DNA from: Candidatus Rokuibacteriota bacterium
Lineage (GTDB): Bacteria; Methylomirabilota; Methylomirabilia; Rokubacteriales; CSP1-6
Length of the DNA stretch: 64,000 bases
Reading direction: 5' to 3'
Assembly: GCA_005887895.1 (NCBI GenBank)
Contig: VBPC01000173.1
Location: 3,006 to 67,005, forward strand
The position numbers were made by a program, and so were the translations under genes. The notes under the pieces are model-generated. The model searched no databases. It saw nothing but the letters and a program-made list of their open reading frames with translations, and was not told where the DNA came from. Shown one piece after another: positions 594-20,641 of the stretch (within the stretch, counting starts at the first letter, position 1; every line of letters begins with the position of its first letter).

Positions 594-634
594 CGAGGGC
601 CCCTCTGCTCGATGCTAGCGTCAGGGTCCGAGTG

Positions 635-689
635 TGTCAAACGTACGGGCCTCTTTCCGCTTGACACATCGAGGCGTTGGCCCTAAAAC
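635..689. promoter_or_regulatory. Candidate divergent sigma70-like promoters between ftsH and the cydA-like gene
   Basis: The plus strand carries TTGACA (661-666), a 17-nt spacer and TAAAAC (684-689), about 95 nt upstream of the ATG at 784. The minus strand carries TTGACA (635-640 on the plus-strand scale), a 17-nt spacer and TAGCAT, facing ftsH. This is a pattern match only. Confidence 0.2.
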
Positions 690-783
690 TTGCCCGGAAC
701 GCTCATGTGATTTCGCGAACAAGCTCGTCTGCGGTGAGGGAAGTCGCACGCTCGCGGGAAGTTCGCAGTCAGAGGCCGAATCG

Positions 784-2574
784 ATGAGCATCGTGACCGC
801 CGCGCGCCGGAGCGCGTACGCGGGTGTCCTGCTGGCCGCCGTCCTGACGCTCGTTTTCCTCGCCCTCCCGGCCGAGGCCCAGCAGGCCGCCGCCAGGGAG
901 CCCGCCTACCGGGCGTTCCCCCTGCTCGGCTCACGGCTGGCCGTGTGGGCCGTCGCGCAGCTGCACCTCAACTTCGCCGCGTTCATCCTCGGCGTGCCGA
1001 TCTTCGCGGTGATCATCGAGATCATCGGCTGGCGCACGCGTGACGCCCGCTACGACTGGCTGTCGCATGAGTTCGTGAAGCTGACGTTCGCGGCGTTCTC
1101 CACGACGGCGCTGCTCGGCGCGTTCCTGCTCTTCCTCTTCGTCGGCTACTACCCGAAGTTCTGGACCTACATGTCCTCTATCTTCTTCCCGACGTACTGG
1201 GTCTACGCCCTGCTGTTCTTCGCCGAGACGTTCACCGTCTACCTCTGGTACTACGGCTGGGACTGGCTGTCGGGCTCCCGCAAGTGGATCCACGTCAGCC
1301 TGGGCGTGCTGTCGAACCTCTTCGGCACCGCCATCCTCGTGGTCGCCAACTCGTGGGTCACCTTCATGATGTCGCCCTCGGGCATCGACGACTCGGGCGC
1401 GCTCAAGGGCGGCGTGTGGGCGGCCATCCACAACCCCACCTGGATCCCGATCAACATCCACCGGCTGATCGCCAACATCGTGTTCGGGGGCACCATCGCG
1501 GGGGCGTACGCGGCATTCCGCTTCCTTTCCGCCAAGACGGACGAAGAGCGGGCGCGGTACGACTGGATGGGCTACATCGGCAATTTCGTCGCGCTGTCGG
1601 CCTTCATCGTGCTGCCGTTCGCCGGCTACTACCTGGGCCGGGAGATCTACGCGTTCAACCAGACGATGGGCATCACGATGATGGGCGGCTTCATGTCGTG
1701 GCTGTGGATCATCCAGGCCATTCTCATCGGCATCCTCTTCCTCGGCTCGAACTACTACCTCTGGCTCGGCATGGAGCGCATCCCGGGCGCCGAGCGCTAT
1801 CGCAAGTACGTCCCGCCGATGCTCATCATCCTCACCGTCGGGTTCATGGTGTGGGCGACGCCGCGCTCGATGGTCGTCACCCTGGACGAGGCGCGGGCCA
1901 TGGGCGGCACCCACCATCCACTCCTCGGCTTCTTCGGCGTGATGTCGGCCAAGAACACGGTCGTGAACCTCATGATCCTCACGACGTTCCTCTCCTACAT
2001 CCTCTACCGCCGCGCGAACCGGATCTCGACGCGGTCGTGGGTGCGCACCGGGATGGCGATCCAGTGGGCGGCCTTCGCTGTGGCCGCCGTCGTCGTGGTC
2101 TTCTACGGCGTCTACGGCTACTTCGTGGAGTCGATCGTGCGCATCGGCTTCTCGGTCTACCAGGTGGTGGCGGTGCTGGCCGCCATCGTGGTGGTCATGG
2201 CCATCGACGTGCCGCTGTTCAAGGGCGCGCGCTCGACCGGCACCATCCGCTGGGGCACCATCGCGCCCCACTCGCAGTACGTGCTCATTCTCCTGGCCGT
2301 CACCTTCACGTGGCTGATGGGCCTCATGGGCTTCGCGCGCTCCGGCATCCGGCAGCACTGGCACGTGTACGGCGTCCTGCGGGACACCTCGGTGGACGCG
2401 GCGACGCCCGCCCTCGGGTACGCGGCCAACGTGATCACGTCGGTGACGCTCGTGTTCTTCGCGCTCGTCATGTTCATCTTCTGGATCGGCGGCCTGGGCG
2501 AGAAGGGCAAGGAGACGGCGCACGGGCACGCGCCGGCCCCGGTGCTGGCCGGCGGCAGCGACCAGGACGTCTAG
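784..2574 (+). CDS. Cytochrome bd-type quinol oxidase subunit I (CydA) family homologue with an extra N-terminal signal/TM segment; no cydB follows
   Basis: The start at the ATG at 784 (MSIVTAARRSAYAGVLLAAVLTLVFLALPAEA) is inferred. The segment AQLHLNFAAFILGVPIF...GYYPKFWTYM...FFAETFTVYLWYYGWDWLSGSRKWIHVSLGVLSNLFGTAILVVANSWVTFMMSP aligns by eye with CydA TM1-TM4. The putative haem-ligand His in TM1, a Glu in the FFAETF motif and the His in INIHRLIANIVFGG are conserved. Confidence 0.7.
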   Translation: MSIVTAARRSAYAGVLLAAVLTLVFLALPAEAQQAAAREPAYRAFPLLGSRLAVWAVAQLHLNFAAFILGVPIFAVIIEIIGWRTRDARYDWLSHEFVKLTFAAFSTTALLGAFLLFLFVGYYPKFWTYMSSIFFPTYWVYALLFFAETFTVYLWYYGWDWLSGSRKWIHVSLGVLSNLFGTAILVVANSWVTFMMSPSGIDDSGALKGGVWAAIHNPTWIPINIHRLIANIVFGGTIAGAYAAFRFLSAKTDEERARYDWMGYIGNFVALSAFIVLPFAGYYLGREIYAFNQTMGITMMGGFMSWLWIIQAILIGILFLGSNYYLWLGMERIPGAERYRKYVPPMLIILTVGFMVWATPRSMVVTLDEARAMGGTHHPLLGFFGVMSAKNTVVNLMILTTFLSYILYRRANRISTRSWVRTGMAIQWAAFAVAAVVVVFYGVYGYFVESIVRIGFSVYQVVAVLAAIVVVMAIDVPLFKGARSTGTIRWGTIAPHSQYVLILLAVTFTWLMGLMGFARSGIRQHWHVYGVLRDTSVDAATPALGYAANVITSVTLVFFALVMFIFWIGGLGEKGKETAHGHAPAPVLAGGSDQDV

Positions 2575-2575
2575 G

Positions 2576-3373
2576 ATGCACGTGCCCGTCGGCGTGAAGG
2601 TCGGCCTCTTCGCCGTCGCCGTGATGGGCAGCTACTCCTACTTCGCCAACTCGATCCCGCAGATCGAGTCCAAGCCGCCGCAAGAGCTGTCGCTGGAAGG
2701 CGGCAACGTCACGCCGGCCCAGCTCGTGAAAGCCGGCGAGGAGATCTTCCACACCAAGGGCACCTGCGAGATCTGCCACCGCATCGGCCAGCCGGGCACG
2801 CGGGCGCCCGACCTGGCCGGCGCCGGCGGGCGCGCCGCCAAGCGGAAGCCCGGCATGAGCGCCAAGGCCTACCTCATCGAGTCGCTGCTGCAGCCGCAGG
2901 CCTACGTCGTCGAGGGCTACCCGCCGATCATGCCGGCCGTGGACAAGCCGCCGATCGCGCTCAATCGCTCCGAAGTGTGGGCGCTGACCGCGTTCCTCGA
3001 GTCGCTCGGCGGCACCGTCGACGTGACGCTGAACGACATCCCGGCCAGCGTCGGCGCGGCGGCGGCCGGCGGCGGGGCGGCGGAGTTCAAGATTCCGGGC
3101 GATCCTCAGGCCGGCGCCCAGGTGTTCCAGGGCAAGGGCACCTGCATCGCGTGCCACAAGGCGGGCAAGATCGGCGCCTCGCCGGTCGGTCCCGACCTCT
3201 CGCAGATCGCCAAGATCCAGACGCCCGACTACATCATGGGGAAGATCCTGAATCCGGCCGGCATGGGCACAGTGGCCGGCTTTCCCAAGGGTGTCATGCC
3301 CCAGGACTTCGGCACGCGGCTGACCTCGAAGGAGTACGTCGATCTCGTCTCCTTCCTGCTCACCCTGAAATGA
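2576..3373 (+). CDS. Dihaem c-type cytochrome
   Basis: There are two CxxCH motifs (CEICH, CIACH), each followed by a distal Met-containing segment, and an N-terminal hydrophobic anchor. The gene begins 1 nt after the upstream stop. Confidence 0.8.
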   Translation: MHVPVGVKVGLFAVAVMGSYSYFANSIPQIESKPPQELSLEGGNVTPAQLVKAGEEIFHTKGTCEICHRIGQPGTRAPDLAGAGGRAAKRKPGMSAKAYLIESLLQPQAYVVEGYPPIMPAVDKPPIALNRSEVWALTAFLESLGGTVDVTLNDIPASVGAAAAGGGAAEFKIPGDPQAGAQVFQGKGTCIACHKAGKIGASPVGPDLSQIAKIQTPDYIMGKILNPAGMGTVAGFPKGVMPQDFGTRLTSKEYVDLVSFLLTLK

Positions 3374-3377
3374 GCCG

Positions 3378-4142
3378 ATGAGATTCCTCCGCTCGCGCTT
3401 CCTGCAGGCCGTCGCGATCTTCGTGCTGGCGTTCGTCGTCCTGCGCTTCGGGATCCGGCCGCCGGCGCCGTGGAGCGTCCTGTCGCTCTACATGTTCATC
3501 ATCACGCTGGCGCTCCTCATCTTCGTCTCATCCGATCGCGACTCGTGGCGCGACTTCGTGCGGCCGATCTGGCTGACGCTGACCGACCCGCGCTACCGCG
3601 GGCTGCGTTCGGTCATCGTCGTGCTGGTGCCGCTGCTGTTCGGCTACTACGCCTACACCCAGGCGGCGGCCAAGCCCCAGGGGCCGCCCGAGCTGCGCGC
3701 GGTGCACCCGGCGCCGCCCGCCTCGATCCAGTTCCGCGGCAAGGAGATCAACATCTCCGGTGTGGAGAACCCGCTGCGCAAGGACGCGGCGGCGTTCGGC
3801 AAGCACGTGGCGGCCGGCCACGACACCTACATCCGCAATTGCGTCTACTGCCACGGCGACAACCTCGACGGCAAGGGCCACTTCGCCTACGGCTTCAACC
3901 CGCCGCCGGCGAACTTCCAGGATCCCGGCACCATCGCGATGCTGCAGGAGGCCTACCTCTTCTGGCGAATCGCCAAGGGCGGCCCGGGGCTGCCGAAGGA
4001 ATCGACGCCGTGGAACTCGGTGATGCCGGCCTGGGAGGAGCGTCTCACGGAGGAGCAGATCTGGCAGGTGATCATGTTCCTGTACGATTTCACCGGCCAG
4101 CAGCCGCGCCGTTGGGAAGCGGGAGAGCATGCCTCCCACTAG
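3378..4142 (+). CDS. Membrane-anchored mono-haem class I cytochrome c
   Basis: Two N-terminal TM helices are followed by a single CVYCH haem-binding motif and a downstream Met region (NSVMPAW). Confidence 0.75.
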   Translation: MRFLRSRFLQAVAIFVLAFVVLRFGIRPPAPWSVLSLYMFIITLALLIFVSSDRDSWRDFVRPIWLTLTDPRYRGLRSVIVVLVPLLFGYYAYTQAAAKPQGPPELRAVHPAPPASIQFRGKEINISGVENPLRKDAAAFGKHVAAGHDTYIRNCVYCHGDNLDGKGHFAYGFNPPPANFQDPGTIAMLQEAYLFWRIAKGGPGLPKESTPWNSVMPAWEERLTEEQIWQVIMFLYDFTGQQPRRWEAGEHASH

Positions 4143-4158
4143 GTGGCGGGCGCCGATA

Positions 4159-5733
4159 ATGGCCCATCTGCGTCGTTGCCTTCTCGCTCCTCCCTGCGGC
4201 GTGGCCGGGCCACGCCGCAGTCGTCGCTCGTCGGCGCCTAGCATCTGGACCATTCTCGGCGCCCTACCTCGACCCGGGCTGGCACAGCTGATTTTCTGCG
4301 CGAGTGTTGCGGCCTCGCTGGCGCTCGCCGCGGACGTCGGTAATGCGTTCGCGCAAGCTGGGGATGCGAATGCGGGGAAGGCGGTTTACGAGAAGAAGTG
4401 TGCGGGGTGTCATGGTCAGAACGGCGACGGGAAGGGGCCGGCGGCGGAGCTGCTGGTGCCGGCGCCGCGGGATTTCACGCGGGGGTTGTACAAGATCCGG
4501 ACGACGGCGAGCAAGGCGCCGTCGGACCGGGACCTGTTCAAGATCATCACGGACGGCATGCCCGGGACCTCGATGCCGTCGTGGGCGGTTCTCCCGGACA
4601 AGGACCGCTGGAATCTCGTGGCATACCTGAAGACCCTGGCGCCGGAGGCGTTCAAGGAGGCGCCCAAGAAGCTCGAGCTGCCGAAGGAGGTCGCCTCCTC
4701 GGAGGCGTCGATCAAGCGCGGCAAGGAGATGTTCGAGGCGATCGAGTGCCACAAGTGCCACGGCACCGACGGGCGCGCCGATGGGCCGTCGCGGCCTGAG
4801 CTCAAGGACGAGTGGGGCCATCCGATCGCGCCGGCCAACCTCACCAAGCGCTGGACCTTCCGGGGCGGGCCGGGACGGACCGAGATCGCCACCCGGCTGG
4901 CCGCCGGCGTCCTCGGCACGCCGATGCCGACCTTCATCGACAGCGTCGAGAAGCCGGAGGACATCTGGCACCTCGCGAACTATCTCGCCTCGCTGGGCCC
5001 CGAGCGCCCGAGCTACGCCACCCTGATCACGGTCACCGCCGTCCGCGGCGACATCCCCGACGATCCCAACGCCGAGTTCTGGAAGAAGCTGACGCCGAGC
5101 GCCATCCCGCTGATGGGCCAAATCATCCAGGATCCGCGTAACTTCAATCCGTCGGTGGATCTCGTCGCCGTCCGAGCTGCCTACAACGAGCGGGACGTCG
5201 TGTTCCACCTGACGTGGGACGACCCCAGCGAGTCGAAGGGCGACGGCAAGCAGACGTTCGCCGACGCGATCTCGCTCCAGTTCCCGCCGCAGATCACCGC
5301 GTCGATCGAGCGGCCCTATTTCCTGATGGGCGACGCCAACGAAGGCGTGTACCTGTTGCGCTGGGAGCAAGGCAAGGGCGTCGGCGAGGCGACCGCCAAC
5401 GGGCCGACGAAGATCGCACCGATCGCGGGCGGCGAGGCGGGCGGCAAGGCGGTGTACGACCACGGCCAGTACCGGCTGGTGATGCGGCGCCCGCTGGCCG
5501 CCACCGGCGAGGCGCGGCCGACGTTCCGGCCGGTCGTGTTCACGCCGGTGGCGATCCAGGCCTGGGACGGCGGCGCCGGGGAGACCGGCACCAGGATGTC
5601 GCTGACGTCATGGTACTATCTGCGGCTGGAGGAACCGCAGTCGAACCGACGCTTCGTCATTCCTCCCGTCGTGGCAATCCTCACACTGGCAGCCATGGTC
5701 CTCGTCGTGCGCGCGGCGAATCGCGTCCGATGA
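4159..5733 (+). CDS. Dihaem cytochrome c fused to an EB_dh-like (DMSO-reductase gamma / ethylbenzene dehydrogenase gamma type) haem-b domain, with a C-terminal TM anchor
   Basis: The N-terminal half carries CAGCH and CHKCH. The C-terminal half (HLTWDDPSESKGDGKQTFADAISLQFPP...YFLMGDANEGVYLLRW...) resembles the Met/Lys-ligated haem-b EB_dh fold. A C-terminal hydrophobic helix (VIPPVVAILTLAAMVLVV) follows. The start is uncertain: ATG 4129, ATG 4159 or GTG 4201 are all possible. Confidence 0.6.
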   Translation: MAHLRRCLLAPPCGVAGPRRSRRSSAPSIWTILGALPRPGLAQLIFCASVAASLALAADVGNAFAQAGDANAGKAVYEKKCAGCHGQNGDGKGPAAELLVPAPRDFTRGLYKIRTTASKAPSDRDLFKIITDGMPGTSMPSWAVLPDKDRWNLVAYLKTLAPEAFKEAPKKLELPKEVASSEASIKRGKEMFEAIECHKCHGTDGRADGPSRPELKDEWGHPIAPANLTKRWTFRGGPGRTEIATRLAAGVLGTPMPTFIDSVEKPEDIWHLANYLASLGPERPSYATLITVTAVRGDIPDDPNAEFWKKLTPSAIPLMGQIIQDPRNFNPSVDLVAVRAAYNERDVVFHLTWDDPSESKGDGKQTFADAISLQFPPQITASIERPYFLMGDANEGVYLLRWEQGKGVGEATANGPTKIAPIAGGEAGGKAVYDHGQYRLVMRRPLAATGEARPTFRPVVFTPVAIQAWDGGAGETGTRMSLTSWYYLRLEEPQSNRRFVIPPVVAILTLAAMVLVVRAANRVR

Positions 5734-10966: not shown

Positions 10967-11038
10967 CCGCCGCCGACGCCGCCCACCGGCGGCGGCGACG
11001 ACGACCGCAACGGCTCGTGGGGCCGGCCGCTCGACAAC

Positions 11039-11575: not shown

Positions 11576-11787
11576 CGCACGCGTTCGGACGAGTCCTGGC
11601 CTGTGCTTCCTGCATGTCGACCGCGTACGGCGACCAGTCGTTCACCTGGGCGTACGGCGCGCTCATCGTGGCTCCCTTCCTGGTCGCCATCGCGCTCGGC
11701 GCCGTGCTCGCCTGGAGCGCGGGGTATCGGCTGCGGTGGTGCCGCGTGACGCCGATGGCGACGCCGATCAACGAGGAGGTTTCATGA
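11572..11787 (+). CDS. Small membrane protein with an N-terminal CxxC motif (71 aa)
   Basis: The ATG overlaps the cox3 stop and the stop overlaps the next ATG (ATGA at both ends). The sequence MTHAFGRVLACASCMSTAYGDQSF... contains a hydrophobic helix (ALIVAPFLVAIALGAVLAW). Confidence 0.4.
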   Translation: MTHAFGRVLACASCMSTAYGDQSFTWAYGALIVAPFLVAIALGAVLAWSAGYRLRWCRVTPMATPINEEVS

Positions 11788-12398
11788 GTGCTGCAACCCC
11801 GCACGCAGCGGTGGAGCGCGCCGAGACCCCGCTCACGCCGGAGAGCTGGGGCAAGCTCGGGATGTGGATCTTCCTGGCCGGCGACGCCGTCGGCTTCGGC
11901 ACGCTGCTGGCGTCCTACGGCGGCATGCGCGCGACCAGCGCCGACTGGCCGAATCCCTACGCGGTGCTCGGCATCAACCTGACCGCCGCCATGACGTTCC
12001 TGCTGATCTGCTCGAGCGTCACGATGGTGAAGGCGCTCGAGTGGCTGGGCCGCGGCGACCGAGCCAAGGCCAAGATGTTCCTGTTCTTCACCGCGCTGGG
12101 CGGGGCCATCTTCGTCGGCTGCCAGGCCTATGAATGGACGCACCTGATCGAGCGTGGCCTGCACATCAACGGCAATCCCTGGGGGGCCGCGCTGTTCGGC
12201 ACCTCGTTCTTCATCGTCACCGGCTTCCACGGCCTCCACGTGACGGGCGGCGTCATCTACCTGCTGGCGATGATCGGCGTCGTGTCCCGCCGGCCCGATC
12301 CGGCGGCCAGCTACAACGCGGTCGAGATCGCCGGCCTCTACTGGCACTTCGTCGACCTCGTGTGGATCATGGTGTTCACCTTCATGTACCTCCTCTAA
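11784..12398 (+). CDS. Cytochrome c oxidase subunit III (copy 2)
   Basis: The protein is 205 aa with motifs AYEWTHLIERGL, FFIVTGFHGLHVTGGVIYL and YWHFVDLVWIMVF. Confidence 0.85.
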   Translation: MSAATPHAAVERAETPLTPESWGKLGMWIFLAGDAVGFGTLLASYGGMRATSADWPNPYAVLGINLTAAMTFLLICSSVTMVKALEWLGRGDRAKAKMFLFFTALGGAIFVGCQAYEWTHLIERGLHINGNPWGAALFGTSFFIVTGFHGLHVTGGVIYLLAMIGVVSRRPDPAASYNAVEIAGLYWHFVDLVWIMVFTFMYLL

Positions 12399-12411
12399 GG
12401 AGGCGAGATCG

Positions 12412-12750
12412 ATGGCAGCCGAGCACAAGCATCCCAACTACATGGCGATCTTCTACCTGCTGGCGGTGCTGACGGTCGGCGAGATCGCCGTCGTGTTCCT
12501 GCCGCACTACATCGGGATCAGCAAGTTCGCCGTCGGCGTGTTCCTGTGCGCCTTCGCGATCGTCAAGGCGGCGCTGGTCGCCATGTACTTCATGCACCTG
12601 AAGTTCGAGGCGCGCACGCTGGGCCTCATCGCCCTCACGCCGCTGACGATCGCCACGCTGCTGGTGTTCGTCATCCTTCCCGACGCTTCGTTCGTGGATC
12701 ACAAGACGGCGAACGTCAAGCCGGCGGCCGAAGAGCCGGCCAAGCACTGA
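12412..12750 (+). CDS. Prokaryotic cytochrome c oxidase subunit IV (caa3-type CoxD/CtaF family)
   Basis: The sequence HKHPNYMAIFYLLAVLTVGEIAVVFLP...AIVKAALVAMYFMHLKFE is the signature of the small three-helix subunit IV family. Confidence 0.75.
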   Translation: MAAEHKHPNYMAIFYLLAVLTVGEIAVVFLPHYIGISKFAVGVFLCAFAIVKAALVAMYFMHLKFEARTLGLIALTPLTIATLLVFVILPDASFVDHKTANVKPAAEEPAKH

Positions 12751-12783
12751 CAGCGGCCCCGCGGGTGGGGGAGCGCGTGGGGC

Positions 12784-13149
12784 ATGGCGGAGGACGGGCC
12801 GCTGGCGCGGGTGGTGCGCGCCGAGGGGCGGACGCTGCGGCTGCGCTGTCCGCGCTGCGGCCGCGCCCCGCTCTTCCGCGGCTGGTTCACCATGAACGTC
12901 GTCTGCGCGGTCTGCTCTCTCCGCTTCGAGCGGGCCCCCGGCTACTGGATCGGTGCCATCTACGTGAACTACGGCGTCACGGTGACGATCGCGGTGGCGG
13001 GCTACTTCCTGCTGTGGGCGCTGGCCGGCGTCGAGACCGGACAGCTCGCGCTGTGGGTGCCGTTCGTGATCGCGTTTCCGCTGTGGTTCTTCCGCTACAG
13101 CCGGGCGCTCTGGCTCGGCCTCGAGTATGCGCTGAACCCGGACCCGTAG
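12784..13149 (+). CDS. DUF983-family membrane protein (zinc-ribbon plus TM), a family typically found in oxidase operons
   Basis: The signature is CPRCGRAPLFRGWFTMNVVCAVCSLRF followed by two TM helices. Confidence 0.7.
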   Translation: MAEDGPLARVVRAEGRTLRLRCPRCGRAPLFRGWFTMNVVCAVCSLRFERAPGYWIGAIYVNYGVTVTIAVAGYFLLWALAGVETGQLALWVPFVIAFPLWFFRYSRALWLGLEYALNPDP

Positions 13150-13176
13150 GGTCCGCGACCTGAGCAAGGAGTCGGT

Positions 13177-13926
13177 GTGCTGAGAATCGTGGCGATGGTC
13201 GTGCTCGCGATGGCGCTGGCGACGCCGGCGCCGGCCTACGAGGTCGTCACCGTGCCCGACGGCGGCACCCTGGCCGGCGTGGTGAGGTTCGCCGGCCCAC
13301 CGCCGAAGCTCGACCCGCTGCCGGTGAACAAGAACCGCGACGTGTGCGGCGACGAGAAGGCCACGGAGGCGCTCATCGTCGGGCCCGACCACGGCGTGCG
13401 TGGCAGCGTCATCCTCGTGGAGGGCGTCACCCGCGGCAAGGCGCCGGCCGGGGAGGTCCTGCTCGACAACCACAAGTGCCTGTTCGTCTCCCACGTCAGC
13501 GCGACGACGACGGGCGAGCGCGCGCGGGTGAAGAACTCCGACGGCATCCTGCACAACACGCACGGCTTCCTGGCCCGGACGACGGTCTTCAACCTCGCGC
13601 TGCCGAACCGCGACCAGATGATCGACATCACCCGGCGGCTCGGCAAGCCGGGGGTGGTGCGCGTCGTGTGCGACGCGCACACCCACATGTTCGGCTGGAT
13701 CGTCGTGCACGACAGCCCCTACTTCGCCGTGAGCGACGACCACGGCGCGTTCCGCATCGAGGGCATCCCGCCCGGCAGCTACAAGGTCACGCTCTGGCAC
13801 GAGGGCTACCGGCCCCGCGGCCTCGACAAGGACGGGCGCGCGCTGTACGACGAGCCCCGCACCATCACCCGCGACGTCACGATCGCGCCGACGGCGACGG
13901 CGACGGTCGACTTCGAGCTCAAATAG
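13177..13926 (+). CDS. Periplasmic cupredoxin-like (type-1 copper) protein, paralogue of 5790-6479
   Basis: A signal peptide is followed by VKNSDGILHNTHGF and VVCDAHTHMFGW (C-x2-H-x2-M). The C-terminal beta-sandwich (FRIEGIPPGSYKVTLWHE...VDFELK) has the same architecture and conserved blocks as the upstream paralogue. Confidence 0.6.
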   Translation: MLRIVAMVVLAMALATPAPAYEVVTVPDGGTLAGVVRFAGPPPKLDPLPVNKNRDVCGDEKATEALIVGPDHGVRGSVILVEGVTRGKAPAGEVLLDNHKCLFVSHVSATTTGERARVKNSDGILHNTHGFLARTTVFNLALPNRDQMIDITRRLGKPGVVRVVCDAHTHMFGWIVVHDSPYFAVSDDHGAFRIEGIPPGSYKVTLWHEGYRPRGLDKDGRALYDEPRTITRDVTIAPTATATVDFELK

Positions 13927-13935
13927 GAGAGGCGC

Positions 13936-15846
13936 ATGTACAAGCACATCTACGTTCCGGTCGACAACTCGGACTACTCGAACCGGGCCATCGACCTGGC
14001 CGTCGAGCTGGGCCGTGCATTCGGCGCACGGCTCACGGGTTGTCACGTGTACGCCGCCCGGCTGCACGACTACCGGTTCAAGCAGATGGAGTACACGCTG
14101 CCGGAGGAGTACAAGGACGAGACGGAGCTCGAGCGCCAGCGCAAGATCCACGACTCGCTGATCGCCATGGGCCTGCAGCTGATCTCGGAGTCCTACCTCG
14201 ATGTCCTGAAGGCCCGGGCGGAGGCGGCCGGCCTCGCCTTCACGCCGAAGATGATGGACGGCAAGCACTACAAGGCGCTCATCGAGGACTGCGCGAGCGC
14301 CGACTACGACCTGGTCATCATGGGCGCCCTCGGCATGGGCGCCGTCAAGGACAGCCAGCTCGGCTCCGTGACCGAGCGCTTCGTCCGTCGAGTCACGCGC
14401 GACACGCTGGTCGTGCGCAATGCCGACGCCCTCCGCGACGCCCAGGGCGCGATCGTCGTCGGCCTCGACGGCTCCCCGCAGTCGTTCCACGGGCTCAAGC
14501 TCGGCCTGGCGCTGTCGCGGGCGCTCGGCCGGCCGGTGCGGGCCATCGCCGTGTACGATCCGTACCTCCATTACGCCATGTTCAACGGCATCGTGGGCGT
14601 CCTGAACGAGAAGGCGTCGAAGATCTTCCGGTTCAAGGAGCAGGAGCAGCTGCACGAGGAGATCATCGATACCGGATTGGCCAAGATCTACCAGTCGCAC
14701 CTCGAGATCGCTCGCAAGCTGGCCGCCGAGGACGGCGTCGACCTCGACATCACGCTGCTCGACGGCAAGTGCTTCGAGAAGATTCTGACCTTCGCCCGCA
14801 AGGAGCAGCCGTGGTTGCTCGTGCTGGGCCGGGTCGGCGTGCACTCCGAGGAGAACGAGACCGATCTCGGCTCCAACACCGACAATCTCCTGCGGCTGGC
14901 GCCCTGCAACGTCCTGCTCACCGGCGGGCGGTTCTATCCGCCGCTGGACGTCAAGGCCGAGGAGATCATCTCGTGGACCGAGGAGGCCGAGGCGCGCATG
15001 GAGCGGGTGCCGCCCCAGGTCAAGGGCGTGGCCCGCACCGCCCTGCTGCGCTACGCGATCGAGCAGGGCCATACGGTCATCACCAACAAGGTCATCGACG
15101 AGGCGATGGCCATCTTCATGCCGACCCGCATGGCGGAGACGATGCAGATCATGGCGGAGGACCTCGCGGTGGCCCAGCTGCGCAAGGACGGCCAGGCGGC
15201 GACGGCGATCTGCTCGGTGTGCGGCTACACCGTCAAGGGACCGAGCGCGGTGGTGACGTGCCCGGTGTGCTCGGCGGCCCCCGACAAGTTCCAGACGATC
15301 ACCCGGGAGGTCGTGGAGACGATCGCGGCCCAGGAAGGCGGCGTCGCCGAGGAAGAGTCGATGCCCGGCGTCGTCACCAAGTGGTCGGCCGACGCCCGCG
15401 ACGCCCTGCGCGAGGTGACCGACGGCTACCTGCGCCGGCGCGCCAAGGCCCGCATCGAGAAGTACGCGCGCTCGAAGAAGATCCCGGTCATCACCTGCCA
15501 GCTCGCGCTGCCGATGATCGAGGAGACGGTCGGCCGCGACAAGCTCGGGGCCGGCTGGGACACGCTCCTCGCCAAGACCCGGTTCGAGCCGGCCGCGGCG
15601 CCGGCGGCGGCGGCCGTGGCGCCGGCGACGAGCGCGTTCACGTGGACCGAGGACGCCGTCGCCCGGCTCAACCGGGTGCCGGCGGGGTTCATGCGGGACA
15701 TGACGCGCGAGGAAATCGAGCGCGTCGCTGCGACGAAGAACGCCACGCTCATCGATCTCGCCCTGTGCGAAGAGGGTATCGGGCACGCCCGCGAGACGAT
15801 GAACGAGGTCATCGCGGGATACGTCTCGAACAAGAAGCCGCGCTGA
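13936..15846 (+). CDS. Multi-domain protein: tandem universal-stress-protein (UspA) domains, a PCP_red domain, a CxxC...CxxC zinc ribbon, and a second PCP_red domain
   Basis: The two USP modules begin YKHIYVPVDNSDYSNRAIDLAVEL and AIVVGLDGSPQSFHGLKLGLALS. The zinc ribbon is CSVCGYTVKGPSAVVTCPVC. The two PCP_red domains (WTEEAEARMERVPPQVKGVARTALLRYAIEQGHTVIT and WTEDAVARLNRVPAGFMRDMTREEIERVAATKNATLI) match the BchB C-terminal domain motif W.peAe..L..iP.FvR......E.fA...G...it. Confidence 0.65.
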   Translation: MYKHIYVPVDNSDYSNRAIDLAVELGRAFGARLTGCHVYAARLHDYRFKQMEYTLPEEYKDETELERQRKIHDSLIAMGLQLISESYLDVLKARAEAAGLAFTPKMMDGKHYKALIEDCASADYDLVIMGALGMGAVKDSQLGSVTERFVRRVTRDTLVVRNADALRDAQGAIVVGLDGSPQSFHGLKLGLALSRALGRPVRAIAVYDPYLHYAMFNGIVGVLNEKASKIFRFKEQEQLHEEIIDTGLAKIYQSHLEIARKLAAEDGVDLDITLLDGKCFEKILTFARKEQPWLLVLGRVGVHSEENETDLGSNTDNLLRLAPCNVLLTGGRFYPPLDVKAEEIISWTEEAEARMERVPPQVKGVARTALLRYAIEQGHTVITNKVIDEAMAIFMPTRMAETMQIMAEDLAVAQLRKDGQAATAICSVCGYTVKGPSAVVTCPVCSAAPDKFQTITREVVETIAAQEGGVAEEESMPGVVTKWSADARDALREVTDGYLRRRAKARIEKYARSKKIPVITCQLALPMIEETVGRDKLGAGWDTLLAKTRFEPAAAPAAAAVAPATSAFTWTEDAVARLNRVPAGFMRDMTREEIERVAATKNATLIDLALCEEGIGHARETMNEVIAGYVSNKKPR

Positions 15847-15854
15847 GCGATGAC

Positions 15855-16002
15855 GGTTCGTGGGCGGCGGCGGGGGCGGGGTCCGGCGACCACGAGGTAG
15901 GCGGCGATGGTTGGGATGCGTGATTCCCTCGTGCCGGGTGGCTCCGTAAGCGGTTGCGGGAAACGGGTCGGCGGACCCCGCCCCCGCCGCCGCCCACGAA
16001 CC
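15855..16002. repeat. 36-nt inverted repeat (35/36 match) with a 76-nt spacer, forming a large potential stem-loop between the USP/PCP_red gene and the radical-SAM gene
   Basis: Arm 1 at 15855-15890 is ggttcgtgggcggcggcgggggcggggtccggcgac. Arm 2 at 15967-16002 is gtcggcggaccccgcccccgccgccgcccacgaacc, the reverse complement with one G/C mismatch. The loop contains a nested cacgagg / cctcgtg inverted pair. Confidence 0.85.
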
Positions 16003-16037
16003 TCCGCGCTCGCACATCTCTCCTTCGGAAGGATCCC

Positions 16038-17465
16038 GTGAGCTCGCCGGCCTCGCCTCAGGCGTCGCCGCCGGCGGCGATGTACACGGCGTATTCGGTG
16101 TCGTGGAACCTCACGCAGCGGTGCAATTTGGAGTGTGCGCATTGTTATATGTCGGCGCACGCGGGGGCCGACTCGCGGGGTGAGCTTTCGACCGACGAGT
16201 GCCGGCGCGTGATCGATGAGATTGCGCGGGTCAATCCGAACGTGTTCTTGATCCTGACCGGCGGGGAGCCGTTGCTGCGCCGGGACATCTTCGACGTCGC
16301 GGGGTACGCGTCGGGCAAGGGGTTCACGACCGTGCTCGGGACCAACGGCGTGCTGCTGCGCGAGCCGCAGGCACGGCTGATGCGCGAGCGCGGGGTGCTC
16401 GGGGCGTCCATCAGCCTCGATTCCACCGAGCGCGTGAAGCACGATGCCTTCCGGCGGCTGCCGGGGGCGTGGGACGGCGCGGTGCGGGCGACGCGCGTGC
16501 TGACCGACGCCGGCCTCGACTTCTCGCTGCACATGTCGGTGACGGACTGGAACGTGGGCGAGGTGCCGGCGATGATCGACCTCGCGAGGGAGCTGGGCGC
16601 CAAGGTGCTCAACTTCTTCTTCCTGGTGCGGACGGGCCGCGGCCGTCGGCTGACCGACATCGATCCCGACGCCTACGAACGGATCCTCACCTATCTGGCG
16701 AAGGTCCAGGGCGCCGGCGAGGGTCCGCCGGGCTTCGTGCGCCGGATGCTCGGCCTCGACCGCCGTGCCGGGGGGCCACGACACGGCCCTCCCGACGCCG
16801 CTGCAACTCCGTTCGAGGATCCGTGGTCGACGCCGGTGGGGCGCGCCGACGGGCTGCTGATCCGCGCGAAGTGCGCGCCGCACTTCCGGCGGATCCTGTG
16901 GGAGCTCAATCCGGCCTCGCCGCTGCTGCGCAACTACGCGCACGGCTCGTGCCCGGCCGGCAAGTACTACTGCCGCATCACGCCGGAGGGCGATGTGACG
17001 CCGTGCCCCTACATGCCCGTCGCCGCCGGGAACGTGAGATCGACGGCGTTCGACGAATTGTGGCGGACGGCGTCGGTCTTCGGGGACCTGCGCGAGTCGA
17101 AGCTGGGCGGCCGCTGCGGCGCCTGCGAGTTCTCCCGCGTGTGCGGCGGCTGCCGCTGCCGGGCCTACGCGGCCTCCGGCGACTACCTCGCCGAGGATCC
17201 GGCGTGCGGCTATCAGCCGGGGGCTCACGGCGGCGTCGTGATCGAGCTGCCGGCCACGCTCACCTTCGGGCTGCCCGTCGATTACGAGCTCGCCTGGGAG
17301 TCGGAGGCGCGCGAGCGCCTCGCCGCGATCCCCTCCTTCGCGCGCGGCATGGTCGTGAAAGCCGTCGAGGCGTACGCCCGCGGCCGCGGCGACCGCGTCG
17401 TCACGCGCGAGCTGCTCGCGCAGGTGCGCGGCTCGTGGGGCGGCCGATTCCGTCCGCAGGCGTGA
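16038..17465 (+). CDS. Radical SAM enzyme with SPASM auxiliary-cluster domain (NirJ/AhbD/PqqE-like) plus a C-terminal PCP_red-like domain
   Basis: A GGAAGGA ribosome-binding site lies 5 nt before the GTG at 16038; an alternative ATG is at 16080. The radical-SAM motif is CNLECAHC (CxxxCxxC), followed by the GGEPLL and GTNGVLL blocks. The SPASM cysteines are CPAGKYYCRITPEGDVTPCPYM...CGACEFSRVCGGCRCRAYAASGDYLAEDPACGY. The tail (LAWESEARERLAAIPSFARGMVVKAVEAYARGRGDRVVTREL) is a PCP_red motif. Confidence 0.75.
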   Translation: MSSPASPQASPPAAMYTAYSVSWNLTQRCNLECAHCYMSAHAGADSRGELSTDECRRVIDEIARVNPNVFLILTGGEPLLRRDIFDVAGYASGKGFTTVLGTNGVLLREPQARLMRERGVLGASISLDSTERVKHDAFRRLPGAWDGAVRATRVLTDAGLDFSLHMSVTDWNVGEVPAMIDLARELGAKVLNFFFLVRTGRGRRLTDIDPDAYERILTYLAKVQGAGEGPPGFVRRMLGLDRRAGGPRHGPPDAAATPFEDPWSTPVGRADGLLIRAKCAPHFRRILWELNPASPLLRNYAHGSCPAGKYYCRITPEGDVTPCPYMPVAAGNVRSTAFDELWRTASVFGDLRESKLGGRCGACEFSRVCGGCRCRAYAASGDYLAEDPACGYQPGAHGGVVIELPATLTFGLPVDYELAWESEARERLAAIPSFARGMVVKAVEAYARGRGDRVVTRELLAQVRGSWGGRFRPQA

Positions 17466-17884
17466 GCGCCGACGATGGCAGGTTTCGCGCGGCCGCCCGC
17501 GGCTACCTCGTGTACGGCGTCGTCTACTGGATCGGCGGCGCCTGGCTCTGGCTGCACGACGTCGGCCGGGGCTCGGCGGCCAGCGTCGGCTGGATCCTCC
17601 TCGGCGCCGTGCTCGTCGTCCTGGTGCCGTACCTGTTGCGCCGCCGCCGGCGCGCGTTCGAGCGCTACGTGCTCAGCCGGCGCGACTTCGCCCGCATCGT
17701 CGCGCTGTTGCTGGCCGTGCGCGTCCTGGCGGTCGCCCGCGTCGTGTTCCGCGCGGGTAGCGCGACGGTGGCGGCGCCGTGGGGCGGCGTCGTGAGCTAC
17801 CGTGTCGGCGGGGCCGTGTTCATCGTCGTCACGCTGACGGCGCTGGCCCTCGTGGCGCGGGCCGCCTGGGCCCGGGAGCCATGA
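17462..17884 (+). CDS. Hypothetical membrane protein (about 140 aa, 3-4 TM helices)
   Basis: The GTG overlaps the upstream stop (GTGA). Hydrophobic helices include YLVYGVVYWIGGAWLWL and WILLGAVLVVLVPYLL. It lies in the operon between the radical-SAM and Mrp genes. Confidence 0.45.
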   Translation: MSADDGRFRAAARGYLVYGVVYWIGGAWLWLHDVGRGSAASVGWILLGAVLVVLVPYLLRRRRRAFERYVLSRRDFARIVALLLAVRVLAVARVVFRAGSATVAAPWGGVVSYRVGGAVFIVVTLTALALVARAAWAREP

Positions 17885-17885
17885 G

Positions 17886-18746
17886 GTGAAGCGCTATCGG
17901 GACATCGCGGGCGACGGCGGCTCGGACATCGTCGGCCAGGTCGAGGCGCAACAGCAGCGTCTGGCCGCGCGCCTGCGCGACGTGCACGCCATCGTCGCGG
18001 TCGTGTCCGGCAAGGGCGGGGTCGGGAAGTCGTCGGTGACGGCGAACCTCGCCGGCGCCTTCGCCCGGACCGGCGCGCGCGTGGGCGTCCTCGACGCCGA
18101 CCTCAACGGTCCCAGCATGGCGACGATGCTCGGCGTCCGCGGGCGCACGCTGGTGGTGGGCGCGGCCGGCGTCGAGCCGCCGCTCGGCGCGCTCGGCATC
18201 CGCGTGATGTCGATGGACCTGCTGCTGGCCGACGATGCCACCCCGCTGACGTGGCAGGCGCCCACCCAGGCCGAGGCGTACACGTGGCGCGGCGCCATGG
18301 AGGCCAACGCGCTCCGGGAGTTCCTGGCCGACACGGCGTGGGGGGCGCTCGACGTGCTCTTCATCGACCTGCCGCCCGGGAGCGATCGTCTCGCCACGGT
18401 CGTCGGCCTGTTGCCCGCCCTGGCCGGTACCGTCGTCGTGACGATTCCCTCCGACGTCTCCCGCCTCGTCGTCCGCAAGTCGATCACCGTGGCCCAGGGC
18501 CTGAAGGCGCCCGTGCTGGGCGTGATCGACAACATGGCGGGAATGTTCCCCGGTCCCGGCGGCGAGGCACTGGCGCGCGAGGCGGGCGTGCCGTTCCTCG
18601 GATCGGTGCCGTTCGACCCCGCGCTGGCCGAGGCGGCCGACCGCGGGGAGCCGTACGTGGCGGTCGCGCCCGCCGCGCCCGCCGCGCGTGCCTTCACGGC
18701 CATCGCCGCCCGCCTCGGCCAGGCGCTCCTCGGCCCGCGCTCGTGA
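17886..18746 (+). CDS. Mrp/NBP35/ApbC-family P-loop ATPase (Fe-S cluster carrier)
   Basis: The deviant Walker A motif is VVSGKGGVGKSSVTANLA, with LDADLNGPS, DLPPGSD and IDNMAG blocks. The GTG start overlaps the upstream stop. Confidence 0.8.
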   Translation: MKRYRDIAGDGGSDIVGQVEAQQQRLAARLRDVHAIVAVVSGKGGVGKSSVTANLAGAFARTGARVGVLDADLNGPSMATMLGVRGRTLVVGAAGVEPPLGALGIRVMSMDLLLADDATPLTWQAPTQAEAYTWRGAMEANALREFLADTAWGALDVLFIDLPPGSDRLATVVGLLPALAGTVVVTIPSDVSRLVVRKSITVAQGLKAPVLGVIDNMAGMFPGPGGEALAREAGVPFLGSVPFDPALAEAADRGEPYVAVAPAAPAARAFTAIAARLGQALLGPRS

Positions 18747-19249
18747 CCGCGCGCTACTGTCTCGCTTGCGGCGCCCCGCTGGCGACGGTGAGCGAGGGCG
18801 GCCGCCGGCGCCGCCGCTGTCGGCGTTGCGGCTGGACGTTCTACGCGAACCCGGTTCCCGCCGCGGTCGCGGTGATCGTCGTCGGCGGCCGGGTCCTTCT
18901 CGGGCGTCGCGCGCGGCCGCCCTACGCGGGCACCTGGGACCTGCCGGGCGGTTTCCTCGAAGCTGGCGAGGCGCCCGAGAGAGGGCTGCGGCGCGAGCTT
19001 CGTGAGGAGATCGGCGTCGGCGTGCGCCGCGCCTCGTTGATCGGCTTCGCCACCGACCGCTACGGTCCGCGCGGCTTCGCCGTCCTCGCCATCGTCTACC
19101 GCGTGGTCCCGACCTCGAAACGCATTCGGGCCGCCGACGACGTCTCGGAGGCCCGCTGGTTCAACATCGCCGCGCCGCCCTTCAGCGAGATCGCCTTCCC
19201 GGGCCTGCGCCGCCTCCTCCGCCGCTATCTGGAGTCCCCCCACCGCTGA
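18743..19249 (+). CDS. NUDIX hydrolase with an N-terminal zinc ribbon
   Basis: The zinc ribbon is CLACGAP...CRRCGW. The Nudix box is GGFLEAGEAPERGLRRELREEIGV. The GTG start overlaps the Mrp stop. Confidence 0.75.
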   Translation: MTARYCLACGAPLATVSEGGRRRRRCRRCGWTFYANPVPAAVAVIVVGGRVLLGRRARPPYAGTWDLPGGFLEAGEAPERGLRRELREEIGVGVRRASLIGFATDRYGPRGFAVLAIVYRVVPTSKRIRAADDVSEARWFNIAAPPFSEIAFPGLRRLLRRYLESPHR

Positions 19250-19266
19250 GACACGTCGACATCCGA

Positions 19267-19285
19267 GCGGCGGCTTTGCCGCCGC
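19267..19285 (+). terminator. GC hairpin downstream of the NUDIX gene (gcggcggc-ttt-gccgccgc), candidate intrinsic terminator
   Basis: It is a perfect 8-bp stem with a 3-nt loop followed by aatcgatgttctgg. There is no clean U-tract, which is normal at this GC content. Confidence 0.3.
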
Positions 19286-19345
19286 AATCGATGTTCTGGG
19301 GGGAGGCAGCGCGAGCGCGAGCCGTCAGGCTCGCGCCGCGCGTCG

Positions 19346-19368
19346 GAAGGGGGGCGAAGCCCCCCTCC
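19346..19368. terminator. GC hairpin (ggggggc-gaa-gcccccc) between convergent genes, candidate bidirectional terminator
   Basis: It is a 7-bp perfect stem with a GAA loop and extending gga/tcc pairs. It lies 8 nt beyond the stop of the minus-strand gene at 19377. Confidence 0.3.
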
Positions 19369-19376
19369 GAGGCGAG

Positions 19377-20111
19377 CTAGGGACAGGAGACGCCGGGCGC
19401 GAGCTGGTAGTTGCTCACCTTGTAGGTCGCGACGAAATCGTCGTCCCACGACGTCAGGCGCAGCGGGCCGACCGCCGTCTCGCCGTCCCAGCCGAGCACG
19501 CGCGCGCGGGCCGCGAGCTCGCGGGCGGGGAGCCGGCCGGCGAGGTAGTCGCCGGCGGTGGCCCGGTCCATGAACACCGCGATGGTCTCGTGCACCGGGC
19601 GGCCCGACGGCGTCGCCGCGGCCTGCTTGAGCCACTCCAGGATGACGGTGAAGCCGTCGAGCGACGGGTCGGCCATCAGCCCGGGGGCCTCGCTCATGCG
19701 GCGAACCATCGGCCCGACGTAGCGGGAGAACATCCGCGACGCACGTTCCTCGATCGTGTAGGCGGCGAATTCCGGCGAGGGCTGCTGGTCGATGTAGAGG
19801 TTGATCGACAGGTAGCGGAGGTCGCCGTCGAGATGCTTCGGCTTGTAGAAGCCGATGCCGTTGCGCTTCACCTCGACCCACGGCATGCAGTGGTACACCT
19901 TGGCACTCAGATCGTGGAGGGCCGGCGCGTACCGGGCGGCGAGGCGCTTGCCCTTCTCGGAGGTGTGCTGCTCGGGCGGCAGGACGCTGTCGTCGGCGGG
20001 GGCGGCCAGGGTCGGGCCCGGCGCCGCCATGGCGAGCGTGACGAGGACGACCGCGGCCAATCCGCGGCGGAACGTCTGGGCAATCCGGTGGGCAGGTCGT
20101 GAAATGTCCAT
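19377..20111 (-). CDS. Hypothetical secreted protein (signal peptide; no recognised domain)
   Basis: The start MDISRPAHRIAQTFRRGLAAVVLVTLAMAAPGPTLAAPA is chosen for its signal-like N-terminus. The codon usage is good. Confidence 0.5.
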   Translation of the reverse strand: MDISRPAHRIAQTFRRGLAAVVLVTLAMAAPGPTLAAPADDSVLPPEQHTSEKGKRLAARYAPALHDLSAKVYHCMPWVEVKRNGIGFYKPKHLDGDLRYLSINLYIDQQPSPEFAAYTIEERASRMFSRYVGPMVRRMSEAPGLMADPSLDGFTVILEWLKQAAATPSGRPVHETIAVFMDRATAGDYLAGRLPARELAARARVLGWDGETAVGPLRLTSWDDDFVATYKVSNYQLAPGVSCP

Positions 20112-20194
20112 ATTCGCCCCTCTAAGCACAGCCAGTGCCATGCTGCGCTCTGTCTGTGATATTCGCCGCTTGGACAGCAGAGGGGGGCAGGGTC

Positions 20195-20226
20195 GGCGCC
20201 CGGATGACACGCCGGGCGCCGACTCT
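20195..20226 (-). terminator. 12-bp perfect-stem hairpin (gtcggcgcccgg-atgacacg-ccgggcgccgac) just 3' of the minus-strand lipoprotein gene
   Basis: The palindrome is read directly from the sequence. It lies about 10 nt beyond the stop codon at 20239 and has no U-tract. Confidence 0.3.
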
Positions 20227-20238
20227 GTCACACCGATG

Positions 20239-20496
20239 TCAGCGCTCCAGGATGGCCTCCTGGCCGACGGTGATGGGCTTGCCCCACCAGCCCTGATCAC
20301 GGGCCAGGGCGATGTCCTGACGCGTCACGCGGGGGGTGCCGCCTTCCTTGTTCCGGGTCGAGAAAAAGAAATGGTCCCCGGAGGCGAAGTGGGTGGGGTG
20401 CTCCTTCCACGTCGCCCATTCGTCACTCGTCGCGCAGCCCGCGAGCACGAGCAGCACGCTTGCCCCAAGCAGGAATTTCCAGTGGTCGATGCGCAT
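20239..20496 (-). CDS. Small lipoprotein (about 85 aa)
   Basis: The sequence MRIDHWKFLLGASVLLVLAGCATSDEW... contains an LAGC lipobox. Confidence 0.5.
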   Translation of the reverse strand: MRIDHWKFLLGASVLLVLAGCATSDEWATWKEHPTHFASGDHFFFSTRNKEGGTPRVTRQDIALARDQGWWGKPITVGQEAILER

Positions 20497-20641
20497 AGCG
20501 GTCATCCTCCAGAAGAGGGTCGTCTTTGCCCCCGATCCATCGCTGCCGAACCGGTGCAGCCACATGCTACCTGCGGCTCCGCGGTCTTTCAACCGTGGTA
20601 GACTCCGATGAAATCGGGCACGCGGAGATCGCACCACGCCA

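Follow-up and report, generated by a model that had tools for sequence, protein, structure and literature searches.

Introduction

Many bacteria have to synthesise heme when oxygen is scarce or absent, and not every lineage has had its enzymes for the last steps assigned. Fe-coproporphyrin III is converted to heme b by AhbD and by the unrelated ChdC, and HemY-family enzymes oxidise coproporphyrinogen or protoporphyrinogen in two oxygen-using heme routes. According to a 2026 review (PMC13564367), AhbD is also found in organisms of the coproporphyrin pathway that have none of the other Ahb enzymes, and it may there decarboxylate coproheme independently of oxygen. The present analysis describes an AhbD/NirJ2-like radical S-adenosylmethionine (SAM)/SPASM enzyme with a C-terminal PCP_red domain, together with its neighbouring genes. 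The gene was found at positions 16038 to 17465 (+ strand) of a stretch of 64,000 nucleotides from Candidatus Rokuibacteriota bacterium (assembly GCA_005887895.1, contig VBPC01000173.1, positions 3,006 to 67,005), which is called the window below. Upstream of it lies a gene for a universal stress protein (Usp) that carries PCP_red domains as well.

The PCP_red domain (PF08369) matches the extreme C-terminus (the last ~50 residues) of BchB/ChlB, a subunit of dark-operative protochlorophyllide oxidoreductase, and the C-terminal end of BchB has been reported as a cover over the protochlorophyllide pocket. Families of bd-type oxidases without quinol-binding sites have been described (10.1101/2021.01.16.426971), with no mention of a radical SAM partner. 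Two Nitrospira papers deal with bd-like oxidases; one states only that Usp proteins rise at low oxygen beside up-regulated clusters, and the other makes no mention of Usp. A full-text literature search found no paper that pairs the PCP_red tail, or bd-like oxidases, with radical SAM enzymes, and a literature search on anammox together with AhbD returned nothing relevant.

Domain organisation and family scores of the enzyme

The enzyme (475 residues) was analysed with Pfam, NCBIfam, sequence alignment, an AlphaFold2 (AF2) model and a neighbour-joining tree. Its start codon is a GTG at 16038 with a Shine-Dalgarno-like GGAAGGA motif upstream, and an alternative ATG is present at 16081. The following parts were located within the gene:

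16107..16583, + strand: Radical_SAM core (residues 24-182; PF04055, 72.9 bits)
16722..16817, + strand: Rokubacteria-type insertion between the core and the SPASM domain (residues 229-260; gapped columns in all non-Rokubacteria homologues)
16950..17126, + strand: SPASM domain, which bears the cysteines of the auxiliary Fe-S clusters (residues 305-363; PF13186, 34.9 bits)
17295..17429, + strand: PCP_red domain (residues 420-464; PF08369, 48.1 bits, with the Pfam gathering threshold at 32.5)

For an alignment, the window enzyme was set against 15 relatives that bear the tail and four proteins of the AhbD/NirJ2-like kind. The CX3CX2C motif (C29/C33/C36) was invariant in this alignment, and so were the cysteines around the SPASM domain (C279, C305, C323, C360, C363, C369, C372 and C390), which would serve two auxiliary [4Fe-4S] clusters. 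The AF2 model reached a mean confidence (pLDDT) of 83 and a predicted template modelling score of 0.77 and was weak only at residues 229-260 and in the linker before PCP_red, which was modelled as three helices at 422-467. The insertion at 229-260 is rich in proline, glycine and arginine and is predicted to be disordered (pLDDT <50). No close relative of the enzyme was found by a sequence search of solved structures (top match PqqE, 76 bits), and Foldseek with the AF2 model returned generic SPASM and twitch enzymes only.

The NCBIfam ranking placed AhbD (TIGR04545) first with 308.1 bits and NirJ2 (TIGR04055) second with 302.5 bits, followed by TIGR04053 (253.6 bits), NirJ (TIGR04051, 193.5 bits) and AhbC (177 bits). 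All matches were under the curated cut-offs (AhbD 500, NirJ2 500, NirJ 515 and TIGR04053 395). Two distant tail-bearing members scored 278 and 315 bits with the AhbD model, and both scored slightly higher with NirJ2. Identity of the window enzyme to AhbD-like and NirJ2 representatives was 39-42%, with all the cluster cysteines invariant. A first-pass annotation of this DNA, made from the sequence alone, had called the protein a SPASM-type radical SAM enzyme resembling AhbD and NirJ. The likeness was confirmed, with AhbD and NirJ2 scores far above those of the peptide maturases; membership of either family was not, since the scores are below the curated cut-offs and the enzyme falls in a separate clade. 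The public record of the identical protein, from a Candidatus Rokuibacteriota bacterium metagenome-assembled genome (MAG), is annotated "radical SAM protein".

A separate and widespread clade

The neighbour-joining tree comprised 114 representatives, was built without bootstrap values and included no AhbD sequence characterised by experiment. The full-length tail-bearing proteins, 24 in number, were all placed in one clade of 29 tips, and outside this clade were a true NirJ2 (P0174, 533 bits) and the AhbD-like proteins P0169 and P0162 (~405 bits). A search of 1.84 billion cluster representatives showed one to three PCP_red domains in 38 of the best 150 matches, including the top ones at 40-50% identity, and the radical SAM/SPASM/PCP_red architecture was present in more than 120 clusters at ≥79% identity. 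The statement in the first-pass annotation that the tail had no known precedent is therefore true of the literature and not of the sequence databases, where the architecture is common.

Named members of the clade belong to Planctomycetota, Nitrospinota, Nitrosomonadales, Dehalococcoidia, Deltaproteobacteria, Nitrospirota, anammox bacteria (Brocadia, Loosdrechtia) and Thiolapillus. They are annotated as "radical SAM protein" or "AdoMet-dependent heme synthase" and once, in a Brocadiaceae MAG, as "nirJ 3". The carriers include strict anaerobes (anammox bacteria) and organisms of oxic-anoxic interfaces. The enzyme belongs to a separate clade that is widespread and uncharacterised and has one to three C-terminal PCP_red domains in nearly all of its members.

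Conserved neighbours of the enzyme

The most conserved neighbour of the enzyme is the upstream Usp-PCP_red gene, which the first-pass annotation had overlooked:

13936..15846, + strand: Usp-PCP_red partner (636 residues; two Usp and three PCP_red domains plus a rubredoxin-like ribbon, identified with Pfam)

Pfam scores of the partner were 134.5 bits for Usp, 91.1 bits for PCP_red over the three copies and 34.3 bits for RUBY_RBDX. The first Usp domain contains GALGMGAVKDSQLGS, which fits G-x2-G-x9-G-S/T, the ATP-binding motif of Usp proteins. A PCP_red domain of the partner aligns weakly with BchB/ChlB chains and with 2KRU. The Usp-PCP_red family is very large, with annotated members in Sedimenticola hydrogenitrophicus, Ca. 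Endoriftia persephone, Thiolapillus, Gallionella and Sideroxyarcus. Small proteins consisting of PCP_red only were seen near the enzyme in loci L084, L085 and L087 and in Entotheonella loci (including L069).

The neighbourhood was surveyed in 80 loci of close relatives, mostly MAGs of Rokubacteria/Methylomirabilota. Denominators are the loci that could be judged:

Usp-PCP_red gene adjacent upstream: 49/60 close loci
Membrane protein gene adjacent: 66/75 close loci
Mrp-like gene within 2.5 kb: 58/66 close loci
NUDIX gene directly after the Mrp-like gene: 26/58 close loci

A second survey covered 12 distant contexts, those of proteins that share 40-50% identity with the window enzyme. In 10 of the 12 (L081, L084-L087 and L090-L094) the enzyme had a Usp or Usp-PCP_red gene adjacent or one gene away, a range that spans MAGs of Nitrospinota, Nitrosomonadales, Dehalococcoidia and Deltaproteobacteria as well as further genomes.

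As a control, a profile scan of metagenome contigs gave 42 loci with a match covering the tail and 29 AhbD/NirJ2-like loci without the tail. Loci were classed by the extent of their match to the query, and neighbours were counted in loci with at least 8 kb of flank (tail-bearing first, tail-less second):

Usp partner: 15/16 and 0/13
bd-like oxidase: 7/16 and 0/13
Mrp-like protein: 7/16 and 0/13
CarboxypepD_reg protein: 7/16 and 0/13
HemY: 5/16 and 0/13

The neighbourhood is specific to the tail-bearing clade.

A HemY-family gene was found directly downstream of the enzyme in at least three subclades. In L086 the HemY-family protein scored 246 bits with TIGR00562 (cut-off 98), and in L094 a HemY-family gene (231 bits) overlaps the stop codon of the enzyme. 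The same order of enzyme and then HemY was present in L089 (partial gene), L095, L097-L100 and L144.

The window also contains an oxidase module, located upstream of the enzyme; its recurrence, too, had escaped the first-pass annotation:

619..2574, + strand: cytochrome bd-like oxidase subunit I homologue (PF01654, 66.8 bits)
2447..5733, + strand: genes for two cytochromes c and for a cytochrome c/EB_dh (heme b) protein (Pfam; DMSO_red_II_gam, 97.9 bits)

The PF01654 match of the bd-like protein covers residues 105-347 only, and the cytochrome c and EB_dh genes lie downstream of its gene. In six distant contexts a bd-like subunit I gene, accompanied by genes for cytochrome c and cytochrome c/EB_dh, was located within 10 kb of the enzyme, and in L081 and L085 the bd-like gene is directly adjacent to the enzyme/partner pair. 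The bd-like proteins of the window, L081, L085, L087, L091, L093 and L094 form one subfamily, because they are 30-58% identical over more than 430 residues; identity of the window protein to the other six is 36-58%. Orthologues of the window cytochrome c/EB_dh genes, 28-40% identical, were found in L081, L085, L090, L091 and L094. In other phyla (L081, L085) orthologues of the bd-like module adjoin Nxr-like and arsenite-oxidase-like molybdoenzymes. Genes of the oxidase-assembly type were observed near the pair in several loci: DUF420, the family of the oxidase assembly factor CtaM, in L084 (6377-7057), SCO1/SenC in L091 (4159-4683) and L093 (4293-4964), and CopD in L087 (18039-18542).

Proposed function

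We consider it an even call that the enzyme converts propionates of a tetrapyrrole to vinyl groups without oxygen, the most probable reaction being coproheme to heme b. The enzyme would work together with the upstream double-Usp protein that bears the same PCP_red domains. SAM would be cleaved by the CX3CX2C cluster to give a 5'-deoxyadenosyl radical, which would remove hydrogen from a coproporphyrin-type tetrapyrrole at a propionate side chain. With the electron leaving through the SPASM auxiliary clusters, the propionate would become a vinyl group, so that Fe-coproporphyrin III, the most likely substrate, would yield heme b. By analogy with the C-terminal end of BchB, the PCP_red domains may hold the tetrapyrrole, hand it over, or dock the enzyme to its Usp partner. 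The partner, with its likely ATP-binding motif and four-cysteine ribbon, probably gates or scaffolds the step. The location beside bd-like and aa3 oxidases may couple an oxygen-independent heme supply, possibly regulated by oxygen, to the assembly of the respiratory chain at low oxygen.

The adjacency of HemY is the strongest support for a heme role, which the first-pass annotation had proposed from the proximity of ctaA and ctaB. The idea thus gains from the HemY-family genes downstream of the enzyme in other lineages, and ctaA/ctaB lend it no support, as they are absent from most of the distant contexts.

Several observations weigh against the proposed coproheme reaction. The AhbD score is below the equivalog cut-off (308 vs 500), and in the tree the enzyme groups neither with the AhbD-like proteins nor with NirJ2. 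The window open reading frames (ORFs) that were scanned included no gene of heme b biosynthesis, and no ferrochelatase gene was next to the enzyme/partner pair in the loci viewed. A housekeeping heme synthase would not call for so close and consistent a tie to one bd-like subfamily. The covering helix of BchB may lie outside the PCP_red region of 45 residues. In the Entotheonella loci and in L063 the enzyme is accompanied by neither Usp nor oxidase.

It is possible, though rather unlikely, that the Usp-PCP_red protein and the radical SAM/PCP_red enzyme form a dedicated tetrapyrrole machine that makes or installs the (possibly modified) heme of bd-like oxidases, with PCP_red as a portable domain for porphyrin binding and handover.

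Alternative explanations

The alternative that survives best is that the PCP_red pair is a maturation system dedicated to the bd-like oxidase and its cytochrome c/EB_dh partners, which would modify or insert heme and not supply heme b to the whole cell. It draws on the recurrence of one bd-like subfamily, found in the window as in six distant lineages no more than 10 kb from the pair, on the bd-like oxidase counts in the long metagenome loci (7/16 vs 0/13 controls) and on the assembly-type genes nearby (SCO1 in L091 and L093, DUF420 in L084, CopD in L087). However, around half of the long loci showed no bd-like gene within reach, and none was seen in the Nitrospinota, Deltaproteobacteria and Entotheonella contexts. 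The adjacency of HemY suggests a general pathway, and the anammox carriers are strict anaerobes. We regard this explanation as unlikely.

The same chemistry could act on another substrate. The enzyme would then be an oxygen-independent coproporphyrinogen III dehydrogenase, a HemN analogue, and would pass protoporphyrinogen IX to the downstream HemY. The order of enzyme and then HemY, with reading frames that overlap or nearly touch, is the step order of the protoporphyrin-dependent pathway. That pathway is usual in Gamma- and Betaproteobacteria, to which several carriers belong, and BchB, the home of the PCP_red homologue, acts on a tetrapyrrole without iron. The adjacency fits either route, however, and cannot discriminate between them, because HemY-family enzymes are also coproporphyrinogen oxidases in the coproporphyrin-dependent route; moreover HemY was present in a minority of loci (5/16). 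The characterised close relatives AhbD, AhbC and NirJ all act on iron tetrapyrroles (PMC13564367). A HemN analogue is accordingly judged distinctly improbable.

A protein-modifying SPASM maturase, of the type of anaerobic sulfatase-maturating enzymes (anSME) or the maturases of ribosomally synthesised and post-translationally modified peptides (RiPPs), is very unlikely. Such an enzyme would act on a PCP_red-containing partner or an oxidase subunit, with PCP_red for recognition or docking. The nearest solved folds are indeed PqqE, SkfB, SuiB and anSME, but these matches are generic, because neither an AhbD nor a NirJ structure was found among the solved structures searched. PCP_red is repeated in the enzyme, the Usp partner and the small stand-alone proteins (L084, L085, L087, L069), as in an enzyme-substrate or docking pair. 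By sequence, however, the enzyme resembles the tetrapyrrole enzymes far more than it does any peptide maturase; among peptide and cofactor maturases the highest scores were those of the mycofactocin maturase (150 bits), WgkB (124), PqqE (119.5, cut-off 381) and AlbA (89.7, cut-off 850). The Pfam scan showed no PqqD-like recognition domain in the enzyme, the conserved junctions with Usp, bd-like oxidase and HemY are too tight for a conserved precursor or other small gene, and the adjacency of HemY would be left unexplained. The peptide maturase that the first-pass annotation had named as the alternative to a heme role was rejected, for RiPPs, on the NCBIfam scores and because neither a recognition domain nor a conserved precursor gene was found.

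The last alternative, the four-gene operon of the first-pass annotation, in which Mrp would bring Fe-S clusters to the enzyme, NUDIX would act on a by-product nucleotide or a cofactor and the heme link would run through ctaA/ctaB, has junctions that overlap or nearly touch and an Mrp-like gene that recurs in the window, L084, L087 and 7/16 long metagenome loci, but it is highly improbable and as a conserved unit largely refuted, with NUDIX in fewer than half of the close loci and in no distant one, an Mrp-like protein whose cysteine loss is lineage-wide, ctaA/ctaB missing from most distant contexts and a nearly universal Usp partner left out.

Other genes of the window and of related loci

The G+C content of the window is ~71%. 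The genes of the region from ctaA to the NUDIX gene, apart from those listed above and the genes between ctaB and 13177, are as follows:

8936-9820: ctaA (COX15-CtaA, 55 bits)
9552-10841: ctaB (UbiA)
13177..13926, + strand: CarboxypepD_reg-domain protein (Pfam)
17462..17884, + strand: small membrane protein (140 residues) with three strongly hydrophobic stretches
17886..18746, + strand: Mrp/NUBPL-like P-loop ATPase (PF10609, 218.7 bits)
18743..19249, + strand: NUDIX hydrolase with an N-terminal zinc ribbon (PF00293, 75.3 bits)

The four genes at 16038-19249 were confirmed as real, on the + strand and coding-like. G+C at third codon positions was 0.89-0.96 and at second positions ≤0.60 in all four, and the overlapping long antisense ORFs were not coding-like. 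The GTGA overlaps reported by the first-pass annotation were read in the sequence at 17462-17465 (enzyme/membrane gene) and 18743-18746 (Mrp-like/NUDIX), and the membrane gene and the Mrp-like gene are 1 nt apart. A promoter and terminator scan of 12300-20500 gave no signal above shuffle expectation. As a unit the four genes were not conserved, with NUDIX directly after Mrp in 26/58 close loci and the membrane gene confined to Rokubacteria-type loci.

The Mrp-like protein carries the deviant Walker A motif GKGGVGKS and missed the equivalog cut-offs of MrpORP (NF041136; 207.7 vs 450 bits) and ApbC (150.5 vs 348 bits). It contains no cysteine, and its CxxC loop is deleted ("IDNMAGMFPGPGGE"), while the distant orthologues in L084 and L087 keep "ENM..Y.CxxC". 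The loop is deleted in 54 of the 62 Mrp-like orthologues (loci L001-L079), and eight basal ones retain CxxC. The canonical Fe-S carrier role given to it in the first-pass annotation was rejected for the window protein on its zero cysteines, and by sequence the role appears unlikely in this lineage, because the loss of the loop is lineage-wide. The conserved position despite the loss of CxxC suggests a role of the Mrp-like protein that does not need a bridging Fe-S cluster.

No Pfam match was found for the 140-residue membrane protein, and tblastn with it gave matches in Rokubacteria-type loci only. The NUDIX protein contains "GFLEAGEAPERGLRRELREEIGV", which fits the Nudix box GX5EX7REUXEEXGU. 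Its gene was after Mrp in 26 of the 58 close loci, elsewhere in 6 and absent in 26, and it was absent from all distant contexts surveyed. It is a variable passenger and not part of the core, because it follows Mrp in only 26/58 close loci.

The first-pass annotation had placed the genes immediately downstream of the heme A/O synthase genes. ctaA and ctaB do lie upstream, though not immediately; five genes (two COX3, COX4_pro, DUF983 and CarboxypepD_reg) are between ctaB and the Usp-PCP_red gene, which then precedes the enzyme. The tandem COX3 pair, followed by COX4_pro and DUF983, occupies 10967-13149, between ctaB and the module, and the distant locus L087 repeats the order of two COX3 and COX4_pro. 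A role as oxygen-independent stand-in for heme A synthase was considered for the enzyme and rejected, as ctaA is present at 8936-9820. The gene ctaC for cytochrome oxidase subunit II (6513-7250) has lost 80 nt at ~6914 relative to its orthologues in L001 and L003. The loss takes out "PVNKIVHVNLRSQDVIHSFFVPQFRMK" with a copper ligand histidine and shifts the frame, and the CuA motif CAELCGFGHSGM, at nt 6988, is found in a different frame. The deletion marks either a pseudogene or an assembly error of the MAG.

CarboxypepD_reg orthologues, 30-37% identical, were found in L085, L087 and L090. A large HEAT-repeat protein (PBS-lyase-type HEAT matches) precedes the Usp-PCP_red gene in L085 (6722-8812) and L097 (4326-6722). 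The HEAT gene abuts Usp in L085, with CarboxypepD_reg several kb further upstream, and in L097 CarboxypepD_reg is located between HEAT and Usp-PCP_red.

In the Entotheonella loci L069, L071, L073 and L076 and in L063, the tail-bearing enzyme is ~70% identical to that of the window and has no Usp, Mrp or oxidase gene nearby. The Entotheonella enzyme is flanked by an acetyl-CoA-synthetase-like gene and by a gene for a 138-residue protein with a weak PCP_red match, and the L063 enzyme lies downstream of genes for an F420 ligase and an F420-dependent oxidoreductase. DUF1800 (plus DUF1501 in L069) and MlrC-type metallopeptidase genes each occur in the window, at 26695-28485 (-) and 40491-42020 (-), and each within 10 kb of the enzyme in an unrelated lineage (L069 13845-16478 and L091 2539-4062). 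This recurrence may be a coincidence.

Significance

The enzyme/partner pair is present in nitrite oxidisers (Nitrospinota), anammox bacteria, Rokubacteria and sulfur- and iron-oxidising bacteria, including animal symbionts. If the enzyme is a heme synthase of the AhbD type, it would fill a pathway gap in these groups and give PCP_red its first function outside chlorophyll synthesis. bd-like terminal oxidases are present in nitrite oxidisers, Rokubacteria, sulfur- and iron-oxidising bacteria and relatives, and if the pair serves these oxidases it would offer a direct experimental handle on their cofactors and respiratory role. The Usp-PCP_red partner is annotated in the cultured Sedimenticola hydrogenitrophicus and both proteins are annotated in Thiolapillus sp.; therefore genetics and biochemistry look feasible.

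Comparison with known systems

The Mrp-like protein shares the P-loop ATPase family and the deviant Walker A motif with Mrp/ApbC/NUBPL and with MrpORP of Desulfovibrio. It differs from them in the absence of the CxxC loop of the bridging cluster and of any cysteine, and in scores below both equivalog cut-offs.

Clusters in which hemN adjoins cbb3 oxidase genes are known from several Proteobacteria. HemN belongs to a different radical SAM family and has no SPASM domain. The arrangement of hemN by cco/fix oxidase genes is a functional analogue of the present one, with an oxygen-independent radical SAM enzyme of late heme synthesis beside a low-oxygen terminal oxidase; the oxidase here is bd-like or aa3 and not cbb3. 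We know of no Usp-PCP_red partner for HemN.

NirJ2 was the second-best family for the window enzyme (302 bits). The enzyme nevertheless differs from NirJ and NirJ2 in scoring below their cut-offs, and the true NirJ2 (P0174) is in another clade. No nirS, nirF or nirDLGH families were found among the scanned window ORFs or in the 12 distant contexts.

AhbD is the best-scoring curated family and shares with the window enzyme the radical SAM and SPASM architecture, 39-42% identity and all the cluster cysteines. The window-type enzyme occurs without other Ahb genes nearby, as does AhbD in some organisms (PMC13564367). It differs in its C-terminal PCP_red domain (up to three in relatives), its separate clade and its score below 500. 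The tail-less AhbD/NirJ2-like genes have neither the Usp-PCP_red partner nor the oxidase and HemY neighbours of the window-type enzyme.

The PCP_red domain is homologous to that of BchB/ChlB (PF08369, 48-91 bits; PDB 3AEK, 2YNM and 2KRU), whose parent enzyme binds a tetrapyrrole. In BchB/ChlB the domain is part of a nitrogenase-like subunit, whereas here it is fused to a radical SAM enzyme and to a Usp protein and also occurs in tandem and as stand-alone proteins.

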